Below are positions 47,882 to 53,368 of a DNA stretch of 64,000 nt, piece by piece. The stretch's first letter is position 1. Every line of letters starts with the position of its first letter. The position numbers and the translations under genes were made by a program. This stretch comes from Thermodesulfobacteriota bacterium (GTDB lineage: Bacteria; Desulfobacterota_D; UBA1144; Nemesobacterales; Nemesobacteraceae). Below the pieces are notes generated by a model. That model saw only the letters and a program-made list of their open reading frames with translations, did no database searches and was not told where the DNA came from. Location: positions 795,154-859,153 of the forward strand of contig OZ253668.1 in assembly GCA_965263275.1 (NCBI GenBank), in the 5' to 3' direction.

Positions 47882-48799
47882 CTATCTATGTTTTGAAGAA
47901 GATTCTGAAAGGACATTTACCAGCAGGTCGTGCTGCTTTCTGTGCTTATCAGGGTTTGTGTCTCGTAGTTTCTTCAAATTCTGAAGCTTCCACTGAACTG
48001 CTGGAAATTGTTCAAAGTCATAAAGACTCCAATCAGGTTCAGCATTGTCAGCACGTAAAAGAAAATCCTTGTCTTCGTCAGTAAGAGACACATTTATCAT
48101 CCAAATTAGTTTATTTCTAGCTTTTTCGTATTCCTCGTAGGAGAAAGGTTCACGTGACATGCCTTCAAATTGGTTCTCAAAGATATCTCTTTGGTCTTGC
48201 GGTCGCGGGGCAAGCAATTCATACATCGGCCTGTCACTACAAAGCAGACCGTATAAAAAACCACGTTTTATGTCATTGAAAAAACCTTCTTGATCCATAA
48301 GCGGACTTAAGTCAAAAAAATCTCTGGGGTGCTGTCGATCCAGGGCCGCACAGACCTTGCCACCATAGAGTTGGCTTGTTGGCACCAAATGCATCGCACA
48401 AAACGTATCAAACTCTGATTGCGCACTTTGGCAGAGCTCTAATTGTTCAGGAGGCGCAATAACACCCCGTTTTACCATGTTCACTTCAATTTTTGTTTGT
48501 GCACCTGAGCGAGAGATAAAAAGCTTGCAGACATTTTGTTGATGAACAACCTGCATGCCTCTCTTTTTTGATTCAATACCACTTTTTATTCTGCTTAACC
48601 CTTGATTGATATTATTCAAAGATGTATCCCTGTCTTCAAGCGGCACATAGGTTAAATCAATGTCAACGGACAGACGTGGCATCTCACGCACGAAAAAATT
48701 AATTGCCGTACCACCATGGAGCACAAAGCAGGATTGCTTTGCCACCTCAGGCAAAACTTCAAGCAAAAGTTCCACCTGTTCTTTATAGTCCTGTCTCAT
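47882..48799 (-). CDS. abiEii: nucleotidyltransferase AbiEii/AbiGii toxin-family protein (type IV TA / abortive-infection component)
   Basis: 305 aa, LHGGTAINFF...RLSVDIDLTY pattern of the AbiEii (DUF1814) family. Located in a low-GC island. Confidence 0.65.
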   Translation of the reverse strand: MRQDYKEQVELLLEVLPEVAKQSCFVLHGGTAINFFVREMPRLSVDIDLTYVPLEDRDTSLNNINQGLSRIKSGIESKKRGMQVVHQQNVCKLFISRSGAQTKIEVNMVKRGVIAPPEQLELCQSAQSEFDTFCAMHLVPTSQLYGGKVCAALDRQHPRDFFDLSPLMDQEGFFNDIKRGFLYGLLCSDRPMYELLAPRPQDQRDIFENQFEGMSREPFSYEEYEKARNKLIWMINVSLTDEDKDFLLRADNAEPDWSLYDFEQFPAVQWKLQNLKKLRDTNPDKHRKQHDLLVNVLSESSSKHR

Positions 48800-49568
48800 T
48801 GCTCTTTGCTTCTAATTCCTTAGGAACAGTGATTTGATACTTTGGCACATAAACACCATTAGTCAGAAGACTTCGTTTGCCTTTGCCCAAATCGATTTTT
48901 TCTAAATCCAGAAAATTAAACCAGTCATGCTCCGCTTTCTCGCTCATATACAAAAAAAGCCGCTTCACTTTCACCGAACGGCACTGCTCAAGCAATGTCT
49001 GCACTTGGGCAGGTCTTAAATTGTTAAGTCCCTCCATCAACTCAAAGGCCTCAAGCAAAGACTGCTTTTCAGGCGCAAGATAAAGGCATTCCATTAGTGC
49101 TCGCGCAGCCCCGGACACATTGACGGAAAAAGTTTTCAGTTCAACGCTGGTCAGTCCCAGTTGTGGGGGAAGAAAGGAAGATGCGCGGTAGTAAACATCT
49201 AACTCCCAATCATACTTCTTAAACCAAAGGGGTAATCTTTCGCTAGCATGACCAAATAATATTGCCCGTTTCGGGGACAATTCAAGATAATGGGATTTAC
49301 CGAGCAATGATAAAGCAGTTCGACCACCAGGGTGAACACTTAAACCTTGCTGTTTTTGCAGGGCATAGACCGCACCCAAATAATCAACTTCGTCTCCCGC
49401 ACGGACCATAGCACCCGCACCTATTGATTCAAACCAATAACTGCGTCGATAGCGTTTCTGAAGATCCAGGCTGTAACCCCGCTCTGCCAGCCATGGTGAC
49501 AAGAGTACAACTCCTCTAGGTACAGTCCTTAAGAGTCGGTTTATTTTAGAATTATTTTGGGTACTCAT
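48783..49568 (-). CDS. abiEi: AbiEi antitoxin-like transcriptional regulator
   Basis: 261 aa, winged-helix-like N-terminal region. It lies immediately upstream of the AbiEii gene, which it overlaps by 17 nt, the usual AbiEi/AbiEii pairing. Confidence 0.55.
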   Translation of the reverse strand: MSTQNNSKINRLLRTVPRGVVLLSPWLAERGYSLDLQKRYRRSYWFESIGAGAMVRAGDEVDYLGAVYALQKQQGLSVHPGGRTALSLLGKSHYLELSPKRAILFGHASERLPLWFKKYDWELDVYYRASSFLPPQLGLTSVELKTFSVNVSGAARALMECLYLAPEKQSLLEAFELMEGLNNLRPAQVQTLLEQCRSVKVKRLFLYMSEKAEHDWFNFLDLEKIDLGKGKRSLLTNGVYVPKYQITVPKELEAKSNETGL

Positions 49569-49824: not shown

Positions 49825-51255
49825 ATGGAATACGAAGCGGTAATCGGTCTTGAAGTGCATGCGCAGCTTGCCACCGAATCAAAGATATTTTCTTCTTCCT
49901 CAACTAAATTCGGAAGTCCTCCCAATTCCCAAGTGAACCCGGTCTGTCTTGGAATGCCGGGGGTGCTGCCGGTTTTCAACGAAAAGGTTCTTGAGTACGC
50001 GATAAGAGCGGGATTGGCGACCAACTGCGAAATTGCCCTGAAATCCAGATTCGCGAGGAAGAACTATTTCTACCCGGATCTTCCGAAAGGCTACCAGATT
50101 TCCCAGTACGATGAACCACTGTGTCTTCGGGGACACCTCGAGATAGATCTGGGGAACGGTAAAAAGAAAATCAGGATAACCCGCATACACCTCGAAGAAG
50201 ACGCAGGGAAGCTCGTGCACGAATATTCCGACTTTGAAAGCTACGTGGATCTGAACAGGGCTGGAGTGCCCCTTGTGGAAATAGTGAGCGAGCCTGACAT
50301 CTCAACCGCCGAAGAAGCGGTCAAATACGTAAAGAAACTGAGAACCATCTTGAGATATCTTGAGGTCTGCGACGGAAACATGGAGGAAGGAAGCCTGCGC
50401 TGCGACGCGAATGTTTCCGTGCGACCGGTAGGACAGAGCAAACTTGGAACGAAAACCGAGATAAAGAACCTGAATTCATTCCGTTTTATACAAAGAGCCA
50501 TAGAATATGAAACAAAGAGGCATGAAGCGGTTCTGCGAAGCGGAGGAAAGATTGTTCAGGAAACAAGGCTTTTTGACTCCCAAAGAGGGGTCACGTTCGC
50601 AATGAGATCAAAAGAAGAAGCTCACGACTACAGGTATTTTCCAGACCCGGATCTTCTGCCGGTTGTAGTGGAAGAGGATTACTTAGAAGAAATCCGTCTC
50701 TCCCTTCCAGAGTTGCCCGATGAAAAACTCAGCAGGTTCGTGGATGAATTCTCCATATCGAAAAACGACGCGGAGACACTTTCGTCCTCAAGACCGCTCG
50801 CGGAATATTTTGAAGAGTGCACAGAACACGCAAACGACAAGAAGGCTGCAAGCAACTGGATTTTAAACGAGCTACTAAGAGAGGTTGAAAACGAGGACAG
50901 GATAAGGGGATTCCCCGTCAAGCCCAAGGATCTTGCCGAACTATTAAACATCCTCGGGGAAGGAAGAATAAACCGCAAAACCGCCAAGGAAATATTTTCC
51001 GAGATGATAAGCGGAGGTAAAGGCGCCGAAGAAATAGTAACGGAGAAGGGGCTTACCCAGATTACGGATGAAGACGAGATTTCTTCAATTATAGCAAAAA
51101 TAATTGAAGAAAGTCCAGAGGAAGTCGAGAGGTACAGGGGCGGGGACATGAAGCTTCTAGGCTTTTTCGTCGGTCAGGTGATGAAGGCAACAAAGGGAAA
51201 AGCCGACCCCGCGGTTGTAAACCAAACGCTCAGGAAATCCCTCGAAAAAGAATAA
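49825..51255 (+). CDS. gatB: Asp-tRNA(Asn)/Glu-tRNA(Gln) amidotransferase subunit B
   Basis: MEYEAVIGLEVHAQL N-terminus with GAAGGA RBS. The track ORF extends upstream to 49717 without conservation. A C-terminal YqeY-like domain is present. Confidence 0.9.
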   Translation: MEYEAVIGLEVHAQLATESKIFSSSSTKFGSPPNSQVNPVCLGMPGVLPVFNEKVLEYAIRAGLATNCEIALKSRFARKNYFYPDLPKGYQISQYDEPLCLRGHLEIDLGNGKKKIRITRIHLEEDAGKLVHEYSDFESYVDLNRAGVPLVEIVSEPDISTAEEAVKYVKKLRTILRYLEVCDGNMEEGSLRCDANVSVRPVGQSKLGTKTEIKNLNSFRFIQRAIEYETKRHEAVLRSGGKIVQETRLFDSQRGVTFAMRSKEEAHDYRYFPDPDLLPVVVEEDYLEEIRLSLPELPDEKLSRFVDEFSISKNDAETLSSSRPLAEYFEECTEHANDKKAASNWILNELLREVENEDRIRGFPVKPKDLAELLNILGEGRINRKTAKEIFSEMISGGKGAEEIVTEKGLTQITDEDEISSIIAKIIEESPEEVERYRGGDMKLLGFFVGQVMKATKGKADPAVVNQTLRKSLEKE

Positions 51256-51319
51256 CGTAATTCTTGAGGATGAGAGGGGATACTACGCGCGGCGATGAAA
51301 CCCCAGAAAAAACGGCAGC

Positions 51320-51838
51320 ATGAAGAATTCCAAAAAAATACTAATCATTGCCGGACCCAACGGCGCTGGAAAAACTACATTTGCCGCGGAGTTCCTTCCT
51401 AACGAGGCTCGCTGTCCGACTTTCATAAACGCAGACCTGATAGCGGCGGAACTTAACCCGCTTCAACCGGATCTAGCGGCAATTCAGGCTGGCAGGCTGA
51501 TGCTGAAGATGATTCACGACTGCGTGGAAAAAGAGGAGAGCTTTGCCTTTGAGACCACCCTTAGTGGACGTATCTACACACGCATGATTCCCCTTTGCCA
51601 AAAAGAGGGTTACCTAATAAAACTGCTATTCTTGAGATTACCGATACCGGAAATGGCTATAGCCCGTGTCAGGCAGCGGGTCCTAGAGGGAGGACATGAT
51701 GTACCGGAACAAACAATCCGTCGCCGGTTTCATTCCGGGTGGGACAATTTTCAGTTAGTTTATAAAGATATGGTGGATGATTGGAAAGTGTACGACAGTT
51801 CCGGAGGCATCCCTATACTCATCGAGCAGAAGGATTGA
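51320..51838 (+). CDS. zeta-toxin-like P-loop kinase (AAA-family ATPase, Zeta_toxin domain)
   Basis: 172 aa, ILIIAGPNGAGKTT Walker A...FINADLIA...SFAFETTLS pattern typical of short zeta-toxin/UNAG-kinase-like proteins. Confidence 0.5.
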   Translation: MKNSKKILIIAGPNGAGKTTFAAEFLPNEARCPTFINADLIAAELNPLQPDLAAIQAGRLMLKMIHDCVEKEESFAFETTLSGRIYTRMIPLCQKEGYLIKLLFLRLPIPEMAIARVRQRVLEGGHDVPEQTIRRRFHSGWDNFQLVYKDMVDDWKVYDSSGGIPILIEQKD

Positions 51839-51840
51839 CT

Positions 51841-52044
51841 ATGGCTACGCAGAAACAACAAGGTTTAGGTCAGGATAAGGAATTGTGGAATCAGGATTTG
51901 GTTGGTGCGGAGGCGGCGATGCTAAGAGCCGCCAAGCTAGCATGTAGCAGGGCCATAGAAACCACTGGTTCGGTAGCTATTTTCAGGGATGGCGAGATCG
52001 TCTGGGAAAAGGATATAAGAAAAATTTTCCCGGAGGATAACTAA
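51841..52044 (+). CDS. small hypothetical protein (67 aa) immediately downstream of the zeta-like kinase
   Basis: The ATG at 51841 overlaps the stop of the kinase gene (TGACTATGG). No recognised domain. The track ORF 51781..52044 has a longer upstream start inside the kinase gene. Confidence 0.25.
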   Translation: MATQKQQGLGQDKELWNQDLVGAEAAMLRAAKLACSRAIETTGSVAIFRDGEIVWEKDIRKIFPEDN

Positions 52045-52105
52045 GGCAACTGATTCTAGCGTAAGAACCTCAGCCTCAGAGGCTGGAAGTGTTCAAGACA
52101 TCCTC

Positions 52106-53368
52106 TCAACCCGAAGATCGCCCGCTTTTTATATGCTCCTCAAACTCGTCCCTGAATTTTCTCACTATCGAGTCAACAGGCATGGCGCAACCATCTGCAA
52201 GGGCACATATGGTTGTTCCCCTCATCTGCGAGCATGCGTCAAGTATTATGTCGATGTACTCAATTGACCCTTTACCTTCGTCAATCTCTCTCAGTATCTT
52301 TTCAAGCCACCACGTTCCTTCCCTGCACTGAACGCATTGCCCGCATGACTCATCCCTGTAGAAATGGGCAAGATTCTGGGCTACCTTCACCATGCTCACC
52401 GTTTCATCCATCACCGTTACGCCAGCCGTTCCAAGCATTGAACCCGCGGCCGCCATGGAATCGAAATCCATCGCAATGTCCAGTTCATCCGCGGAAAAAA
52501 CCGCGGAAGAAGAACCGCCGGGAGAAACAGCCTTTATTCCCTTTCCCCCGAGAACTCCTCCGCCGTACTCTTCAATCAGTTCAAGAAGGTTTATTCCGAG
52601 GGGAAGTTCGTAAAGCCCAGGTTTGTTTACGTGCCCGCTTAGCCCGAAAATCTTGGTTCCCGTGTTTCTTGGAGTACCTATTGAGGCAAACCAATCCGCC
52701 CCGTTGTTTATTATATGCGGAACGCAAGCGAGCGTCTCCACGTTATTAACTATGGTGGGACAGCCGAAAAGGCCTATCTGGGCCGGGAAAGGAGGTTTTG
52801 GCCTCGGTTCTCCCTTCTTCCCCTCTATTGACTCAAGAAGACCGGTTTCCTCTCCGCATATGTAGGCGCCGGCGCCGATGTACAGCTTGATATCGATATC
52901 AAAACCGCTTAGAAGTATGTTTTTGCCGAGATAGCCGTGCTCGTAGGCTTCCCCTATGGCCTGCTGTACCCTTTTAGCTCCGTAGGGCATCTCTCCTCTT
53001 ATGTATATGTAGGCTTTGTGGGACCGGATAGCGTAGCAGGCAATTATTATGCCCTCAATCATCTGGTGAGGATCTTTTTCCAGGATCTCCCTGTCTTTGA
53101 AGCTTCCGGGTTCGCTTTCGTCGGCGTTGCAGCAGAGATAGACGGGCTTCTTGGAATCAGGCGGGATGAAACTCCACTTTATTCCCGCCGGAAAACCCGC
53201 CCCTCCCCTTCCCCGAAGACCCGATTTTTTGACCGCGTCGGTTATATCCCCCGGAGCCATTCCAAGGGCCTTTCTGAGCGCTGAATATCCGCCGGAGGCA
53301 AGATATGATTCGATAGTGTAGGAGTCAGGCCTATCGACGTAATTTCTTATGATTCTCTGCTCGGGCAT
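52106..53368 (-). CDS. nuoF: NADH:quinone oxidoreductase 51 kDa subunit (NuoF-like)
   Basis: SGLRGRGGAGFPAGIKW (FMN site), the GAGAYICGEETGLLESIEG NADH site and the C-terminal CGQCVQCREG 4Fe-4S motif. No nuoE or nuoG is adjacent. Confidence 0.85.
   Translation of the reverse strand: MPEQRIIRNYVDRPDSYTIESYLASGGYSALRKALGMAPGDITDAVKKSGLRGRGGAGFPAGIKWSFIPPDSKKPVYLCCNADESEPGSFKDREILEKDPHQMIEGIIIACYAIRSHKAYIYIRGEMPYGAKRVQQAIGEAYEHGYLGKNILLSGFDIDIKLYIGAGAYICGEETGLLESIEGKKGEPRPKPPFPAQIGLFGCPTIVNNVETLACVPHIINNGADWFASIGTPRNTGTKIFGLSGHVNKPGLYELPLGINLLELIEEYGGGVLGGKGIKAVSPGGSSSAVFSADELDIAMDFDSMAAAGSMLGTAGVTVMDETVSMVKVAQNLAHFYRDESCGQCVQCREGTWWLEKILREIDEGKGSIEYIDIILDACSQMRGTTICALADGCAMPVDSIVRKFRDEFEEHIKSGRSSG

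Follow-up and report, generated by a model that had tools for sequence, protein, structure and literature searches.

Does a short P-loop kinase gene followed by a very small open reading frame (ORF) form a toxin–antitoxin (TA) pair with the toxin gene first, a two-subunit enzyme, or a kinase beside a chance reading frame? The question arises from a locus of a Thermodesulfobacteriota bacterium (GenBank assembly GCA_965263275.1, contig OZ253668.1, positions 795,154 to 859,153 of the forward strand), a stretch of 64,000 nucleotides that we call the window and whose internal numbering is used throughout. Between gatB and nuoF it carries a gene for a zeta-toxin-family kinase and, directly downstream, a gene for a small protein (Table 1). 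An earlier note, made from the DNA letters alone, had proposed a zeta-toxin-like kinase that either had an unconventional downstream partner or was solitary. We conclude from comparison with related loci that the two genes probably form a toxin-first, zeta-type TA module with an antitoxin of a new family.

The kinase and the gene that follows it

The kinase is recognised by the Pfam model Zeta_toxin (PF06414; E = 3e-8, 33.7 bits, above the cut-off of 22.3), with residues 4-162 aligned to positions 15-189 of the 199 in the profile. It scores nearly equally against AAA_33 (33.5 bits, cut-off 27); these are the two hidden Markov models (HMMs) that the earlier note had named for a check of its assignment, and both score above their cut-offs. 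In a Foldseek search with the predicted fold, the best matches were zeta and PezT (E-values 1e-8 to 1e-7). Polynucleotide kinase (PNK) was about equal to these in match quality, and gluconate and shikimate kinases were clearly poorer; the predicted fold alone does not separate a zeta-like from a PNK-like kinase. The NCBIfam and PADLOC libraries gave matches to the kinase that were limited to the P-loop and, in NCBIfam, below cut-off. Among the defence models of PADLOC-DB v2 these were short and had E >= 1e-3, and the small protein had none. PDB sequence searches, with single sequences and with profiles, returned no solved relative of either protein. The kinase family is large (more than 8000 homologues), and the source databases name its members "AAA family ATPase", "Zeta toxin family protein" or "predicted ABC-type ATPase".

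The Walker A motif reported in the earlier note for a 172-residue protein is indeed present, with GPNGAGKTT at residues 12-20. In an alignment of 24 sequences, all members share the P-loop residues G12, P13, N14, G15, A16, G17 and T19, and at least 90% have K18. The same alignment shows invariance of E78, T80, L81, S82 and G83 in the ETTLSG loop and of R116, V117, R120, G124, G125 and H126 in the segment that follows. N37-A38-D39 is invariant among the kinase homologues, as is R136 across 24 to 46 kinase sequences. In Rv0366c of Mycobacterium tuberculosis, GPNGAGKS, Asp36, Glu75, Arg116 and His122 correspond to the Walker A motif, Asp67, Glu116, Arg158 and Arg171 of zeta, and the GTXR motif for binding of UDP-N-acetylglucosamine (UDP-GlcNAc) is likewise missing (PMC6362051). 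Compared through these published motif positions, the window kinase has the same motifs as the 197-residue Rv0366c at an offset of +3/+4. The presumed phosphotransfer set of zeta (D67, E116 and R158) is thus represented by D39, E78 and R120, all invariant, together with the P-loop lysine; the equivalence follows the published Rv0366c mapping and, for Asp39, was deduced from motif spacing. With 172 residues, motifs at 12-19, 39, 78, 120 and 126, and no GTXR, the protein has the features of the short Rv0366c type, of which Rv0366c is the only tested member. The motifs suggest a catalytically competent kinase of this type.

Where zeta has GTXR, the window kinase has ETTLSGR, which is invariant throughout the subfamily, and a loop of the type ETTL[ST/A]G also occurs in distant plasmid homologues. 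Because GTXR is replaced by this family-wide loop, the substrate is probably not UDP-GlcNAc, and the loop suggests a substrate of another kind. Two positions of the window kinase depart from its family: residue 93 (51596-51598) is Cys, against Trp (W93) in at least 90% of homologues, and residue 85 (51572-51574) is Ile, against a consensus Gly in SGRGY. The catalytic invariant residues are all intact despite these two changes.

The kinase gene ends with TGA at 51836-51838 and the ATG of the small ORF occupies 51841-51843. The earlier note had placed this start correctly, and the string TGACTATGG is present, yet the overlap with the kinase stop codon that it described is in fact a gap of 2 nt (CT). 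The translational coupling that it had drawn from the overlap remains plausible on other grounds, because a Shine-Dalgarno-like AAGGA sits 6 nt before the ATG, inside the kinase gene. Upstream, gatB stops at 51255, and the 64 nt from there to the kinase start hold no ORF on the kinase strand, hence neither an antitoxin in the position of epsilon or PezA nor one of the ribbon-helix-helix (RHH) or ParD-like kind.

The small protein belongs to a family without annotation. The earlier note had suggested a comparison with antitoxin families; this found nothing in Pfam (E <= 0.1), NCBIfam, PADLOC or the PDB, either with the protein alone or with 75 diverse members of its family. Thirty close homologues (61-95% identity) share contigs with kinase homologues, and a profile search of 1.84 billion representative proteins gave 218 clusters (50% identity) at E <= 1e-3. 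Across loci the proteins are mostly 56-83 residues long and have the common motif DPD..aE.Al.RAA..AR..A..tG..v.v..dGkiv. Among the 75 diverse members A26 and R29 are invariant, A30, A31, A34 and A38 are kept in at least 90%, and there is no helix-turn-helix, RHH or AbrB domain. For this protein of about 65 residues the prediction is that a disordered N-terminus leads into a single long helix with an Ala face, followed by a beta-hairpin. Some relatives are larger. The kinase fusions P0151 (304 residues) and P0154 (369 residues) include one protein with two tandem small-protein domains and one with an extra C-terminal region. At three loci the motif stands at the N-terminal end of a far longer protein, to which DUF3644 (L006, 3523-4629), HATPase_c_4 (L036, 3531-4544) or a Swt1-like HEPN domain (L030, 3522-4754) is added. 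These three could be real domain fusions, or indel errors in genomes assembled from long-read metagenomes could have produced read-through.

Pairing, fusion and decay across genomes

A scan of 185,579 species genomes gave 80 loci, or 81 with the syntenic locus L001. The carriers are Dehalococcoidia, Verrucomicrobia, Acidobacteriota, Latescibacterota, Binatia, several proteobacterial classes, cyanobacteria, Planctomycetota and Nitrospirales. In 79 of the 81 loci the kinase gene is followed immediately by a gene for a small-protein homologue or is fused to one, and one of the two loci that lack it is truncated by a contig end. The junction of the two genes is a 4-nt overlap in 57 of 77 cases. 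The earlier note would have abandoned the pair had the small ORF not been conserved, and had kept a solitary kinase in reserve; the pair is conserved across many phyla, and it is the downstream partner that stands. Co-directional adjacent small genes, a coupled or overlapping junction and variable neighbourhoods are also the generic layout of type II TA systems.

In-frame fusions of kinase and small protein make up about 25 protein clusters in a search with a long homologue (P0025, 243 residues). They are not assembly artefacts, because 14 contigs, drawn from NCBI, ENA and Logan, encode one of them (P0164) without any difference in sequence. The natural fusions and the kinases were combined in one alignment (A5). 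Small-protein matches upstream of the kinase in L015 and L037 proved spurious, as the profile had drawn in long fusion proteins; later tests used a clean, rebuilt profile. The AlphaFold2 model of P0025 has a predicted template modelling score (pTM) of 0.85, with a disordered linker at 172-190 and a small domain consisting of a helix (191-215) and two strands (217-222 and 225-230) at a mean local confidence (pLDDT) of about 92. About 87% of the residues are ordered, which puts the ceiling for pTM at about 0.87. Because the observed score approaches this ceiling, the small domain would appear to be confidently docked in the model.

Both genes are under purifying selection, with ratios of non-synonymous to synonymous substitution (dN/dS) between the window and its relatives of 0.07-0.15 (small ORF) and 0.09-0.16 (kinase). 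This selection, and the homologues that follow or are fused to the kinase in nearly all loci, go far beyond what a chance frame would give. The distance matrices of the two proteins are correlated (Mantel r = 0.58; permutation maximum 0.16), and the small protein diverges about twice as fast (mean pairwise identity 32%, against 62% for the kinase).

A few loci have decayed, and they have done so unevenly. The kinase carries stop codons in L059 and L065 and is frameshifted in L068, with the small ORF intact in all three. L046, the only complete locus without a small ORF, has a kinase altered at four otherwise invariant sites (GAGKT to GADKT, which affects a Walker A glycine, ETT to ETM, GGH to GGR and RRRF to RRIF). 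In this small sample, the asymmetry is what a toxin/antidote relationship predicts. Two modules lie less than about 2.5 kb apart in L064 (541-1246 and 3001-3770) and in L067 (1255-1943 and 2983-3731), which suggests duplication or accumulation in islands.

Function of the pair and competing explanations

We propose that the pair is a self-contained, horizontally mobile two-gene module of TA type. The first gene, for a short zeta/PezT-family P-loop kinase, would encode the toxin; the second, translationally coupled to it, would encode an antitoxin that binds the kinase directly and holds it inactive. Loss or titration of the small protein, for instance through phage infection or loss of the locus, would free the kinase, which would then phosphorylate an essential metabolite or macromolecule, and growth would stop. 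Because it has no DNA-binding domain, the small protein probably does not control the operon that encodes it. What we infer in this scheme is the physical binding, the direction in which inhibition acts, the toxicity, the substrate and the trigger. The closest precedent is Rv0366c, which causes bacteriostasis and is neutralised by its partner (PMC6362051).

Several observations weigh against this proposal. The DNA-binding domain typical of type II antitoxins is absent from the small protein, and upstream of the kinase gene a scan for sigma-70 promoters was negative and no conserved operator was found. PADLOC has no model for the kinase–small-protein pair. The related Synechocystis pair sll8004/ssl8003 has been listed only as 'related to TA modules' (Kopfmann et al. 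2016, PMC4963859). That the small protein would occlude the active site is assumed by analogy with epsilon and PezA. The asymmetry of decay comes from four loci, and some of the frameshifts, found in long-read metagenome-assembled genomes, may be sequencing errors. Finally, the long vertical retention of the pair between gatB and nuoF and the stable fusions fit an obligate two-subunit enzyme equally well.

Such an enzyme, a non-toxic kinase to which the small protein would belong constitutively as a structural, activating or specificity subunit, is the alternative that survives best, and we consider it rather unlikely. The kinase could then be an accessory to restriction-modification, or modify a metabolite or nucleic acid. 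Recurrent in-frame fusion is a classic sign of cooperating subunits, yet EzeT provides a precedent for a toxin fused to its antitoxin. The strict co-occurrence and co-variation of the two genes, their stable retention between housekeeping genes in the lineage of the window, and the lack of a DNA-binding domain all suit a holoenzyme, as does the fact that the module often sits amid restriction-operon genes that overlap it by 4 nt on either side (L066, L076). Set against this are the patchy, horizontally spread distribution and the variable neighbours. Other subfamilies of the kinase have unrelated partners encoded upstream, and such mixing and matching is typical of TA systems, not of conserved holoenzymes. 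The closest tested relative, Rv0366c, is growth-inhibitory and neutralised by its partner. In the decayed loci, moreover, the small ORF outlives the kinase in three cases, and where it is the small ORF that was lost the kinase is mutated.

The near-equal Pfam scores of AAA_33 and Zeta_toxin would also suit a polynucleotide (RNA/DNA 5'-OH) or tRNA kinase of the PNK/PSTK type, engaged in repair or damage within defence islands, with the small protein as an adaptor and a likeness to zeta that is confined to the fold. RNases of the HEPN type are neighbours in some loci (a Swt1-like HEPN in L030, NTase_sub_bind in L001), which is in keeping with this idea. We regard it as improbable. PNK enzymes such as T4 PNK carry a substrate-binding Arg three positions past the catalytic Asp, and at this position the present family has an invariant Ala (A42). 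INAD-LI and ETT align with IDND-TF and EGT of zeta, and Foldseek places zeta and PezT first. A PDB-sequence profile search reaches Pnkp1 only at E = 0.19, and partner domains of the phosphatase, ligase or Hen1 kinds are not present.

The last alternative, an ordinary metabolic kinase (gluconate, shikimate or nucleoside-monophosphate) with a chance frame downstream, can draw on the P-loop kinase fold, weak P-loop-only matches to adenylate and guanylate kinases in NCBIfam and the flanking housekeeping genes, and is effectively refuted: no NCBIfam match comes near its cut-off, the kinase passes the Zeta_toxin cut-off and is closer in fold to zeta/PezT than to the gluconate and shikimate kinases that the earlier note had feared, and the small ORF is kept across phyla (HMM E ~1e-20, dN/dS ~0.1) and naturally fused to the kinase.

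Returning to the TA module, we offer one further idea, which is speculative and in our estimation doubtful. The pair might be an abortive-infection or addiction system that travels with restriction-modification genes, in which a kinase that does not act on UDP-GlcNAc is restrained by a helix-hairpin antitoxin or sensor and freed when restriction fails or a phage shuts down host expression. If so, the ETTLSG-loop kinase would represent a new toxin chemistry.

Zeta and PezT are among the few TA toxins that act as kinases. The kinase described here is ordinary for its family; the novelty lies in the family of the partner, the order of the genes, the fusions and the association with restriction loci. 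Our literature searches found no description of this kinase–small-protein pair, and zeta is unmentioned in Makarova et al. 2009. A survey of 2023 reported several "orphan" zeta toxins and sought their partners only among upstream genes (PMC10532202). Here, one large zeta subfamily that crosses phyla has a downstream partner from a family unannotated in Pfam and NCBIfam; some of the orphans may therefore have partners as well. Counterpart pairs exist in culturable organisms, namely sll8004/ssl8003 of Synechocystis PCC 6803 and a pair on a conjugative plasmid of Legionella pneumophila.

Related systems and genomic context

The resemblance to epsilon/zeta of pSM19035 and PezAT of Streptococcus pneumoniae lies in the kinase, which is matched by Pfam Zeta_toxin, has zeta and PezT as its best Foldseek matches and keeps the Walker A motif and the equivalents of the catalytic Asp, Glu and Arg. 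It differs from both in having ETTLSG for GTXR. The window partner comes from a downstream gene, has no sequence relationship with epsilon or PezA and is predicted to form a helix and beta-hairpin instead of a helical bundle, and the module has no omega-type regulator. Epsilon is, like the partner described here, a small protein without a DNA-binding function of its own, so autoregulation is not a universal feature of such systems. The gene for Rv0367c, the antitoxin of Rv0366c, lies upstream, and its product carries a DNA-binding domain of the RHH/ParD-like kind, unlike the window partner, which is downstream and of another, unannotated family. AvrRxo1 of Xanthomonas oryzae (AvrRxo1-Arc1, PDB 4z8q) is a secreted effector of about 420 residues that phosphorylates nicotinamide adenine dinucleotide, and Arc1 has no detectable sequence similarity to the small protein. 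EzeT of Escherichia coli carries kinase and inhibitor on one polypeptide, as the natural fusions reported here do with the presumed inhibitor; in EzeT, a UDP-GlcNAc kinase, the inhibitory domain is N-terminal, whereas the small domain of the fusions is C-terminal and the window proteins are separate.

The closest plasmid match is sll8004/ssl8003 on pSYSG of Synechocystis PCC 6803 (old locus tags). The kinase is 61% identical and is followed, with a 4-nt overlap, by an ORF of 59 residues that the small-protein profile recognises (E = 3e-25). This pair differs from that of the window in lying inside a type I restriction locus, beside an MNT-type gene and DarTG-like genes. The pSYSG island (L087, 3748-8429) runs from a DUF433/PIN-like pair through hsdS and the MNT-type nucleotidyltransferase gene to the kinase, the small ORF, a DUF4433 (DarT-like) gene and a macro-domain (DarG-like) gene. 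Plasmid homologues in Legionella pneumophila, Nostoc and Crocosphaera (43-49% identity) are followed by overlapping ORFs of 64-66 residues, again of the helix-and-hairpin kind. Those of Nostoc and Crocosphaera match the small-protein profile; that of Legionella falls below its threshold and is alike by eye only. Four more distant plasmid kinases (L092-L095; Agrobacterium pTi, Lactiplantibacillus plantarum, E. coli and E. faecium pHTbeta; 30-35% identity) have an overlapping ORF of 61-81 residues upstream instead. The window small-protein profile does not recognise these ORFs, and they are not obviously alike among themselves. Their order agrees with TASmania, which pairs this toxin cluster with ParD_like antitoxins, the antitoxin preceding the toxin. 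The short zeta family thus seems to have recruited several different partner proteins.

Neighbours of the module are highly variable, with 134 Pfam families among the 141 immediately flanking ORFs. Those that recur are N6_N4_Mtase, Methylase_S, ResIII, Fic, RhuM, N6_Mtase and GmrSD. Restriction genes are nearby in at least 18 of the 80 loci; by clustering, 10 loci have HsdM within 3 kb, 6 have a type III Mod gene and 2 have GmrSD, and genes of the restriction operon often overlap the module by 4 nt on both sides (for example in L066 and L076). That the module is so often sited in restriction operons of types I and III suggests that it contributes to phage defence or stabilises defence islands. 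PrrC of EcoprrI is a latent toxin in a type I restriction-modification locus, an anticodon nuclease that is restrained by the restriction enzyme itself. The analogy with PrrC is one of context only, the present module being inside a restriction operon at 16 loci or more; the kinase, however, comes with a small protein of its own, and restriction loci hold only a minority of the copies. A phage origin was considered and is unlikely, since the module is rare in phage records (4 weak matches in 50,697) and viral contigs (7 loci in 2.9 million). Three immediate neighbours of the module in other loci match the retropepsin-like family PF13975.

Table 1. Coordinates in the window of the two genes and of their sequence features
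Feature	Coordinates	Strand	Remarks
Zeta-toxin-family P-loop kinase gene, short Rv0366c-like type	51320..51838	+	172 aa; ATG start
Walker A / P-loop GPNGAGKT, residues 12-19	51353..51376	+	read from the sequence
Asp39 in INADLI	51434..51436	+	presumed catalytic base; equivalent of zeta Asp67 and Rv0366c Asp36
ETTLSG loop, residues 78-83	51551..51568	+	in the place of zeta E116 and the GTXR motif, with another sequence
RVRQRVLEGGH segment, residues 116-126	51665..51697	+	R120 and H126 presumed to correspond to zeta R158 and R171
Shine-Dalgarno-like AAGGA	51830..51834	+	within the end of the kinase gene; presumed function
Small partner gene (putative antitoxin)	51841..52044	+	67 aa; ATG start; unannotated family
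Small-protein core, residues 19-54, DL.GAEAAMLRAAKLACSRAIETTGSVAIFRDGEIV	51895..52002	+	predicted long helix, then beta-hairpin
Inverted repeat CAGCCTC/GAGGCTG	52071..52085		7 bp, perfect; in the gap where the small ORF and nuoF converge

The window also contains a complete AbiE pair on the minus strand (47882-49568), confirmed by Pfam. AbiEii is a nucleotidyltransferase toxin of 305 residues (Pfam E = 1.8e-29), and AbiEi, of 261 residues with the domains AbiEi_3_N and AbiEi_3, overlaps it by 17 nt. AbiEi starts at 49568, 1752 nt before the kinase gene does, gatB lies between them, and an AbiEi gene likewise lies upstream of gatB in the syntenic relative L001. The distance of about 1.7 kb given in the earlier note therefore agrees; the small defence cluster that it envisaged is a tenuous idea, because gatB lies in between.

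The pair is syntenic between gatB and nuoF in the lineage of the window (L001 and L002). An 18-bp near-palindrome, AAGAATAAC/GTAATTCTT, spans the gatB stop codon at 51248-51265; it was dropped as an operator candidate because neither relative conserves it. A block nearer the kinase start, GG.TA.TACGC...GAAA.CC, is kept in the syntenic relatives. On the other side, nuoF is convergent with the pair (52106..53368, minus strand). The inverted repeat before it may form a hairpin at the transcript end; a terminator scan did not flag it, a T-run is absent, and no terminator was called 3' of the small ORF. The stretch between the small ORF and nuoF is only 61 nt in the window (52045-52105), and in L001 (5291-5713) it holds an extra gene for NTase_sub_bind, a TA component of the HEPN type, and another ORF. 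This spot therefore gains or loses TA genes between relatives.

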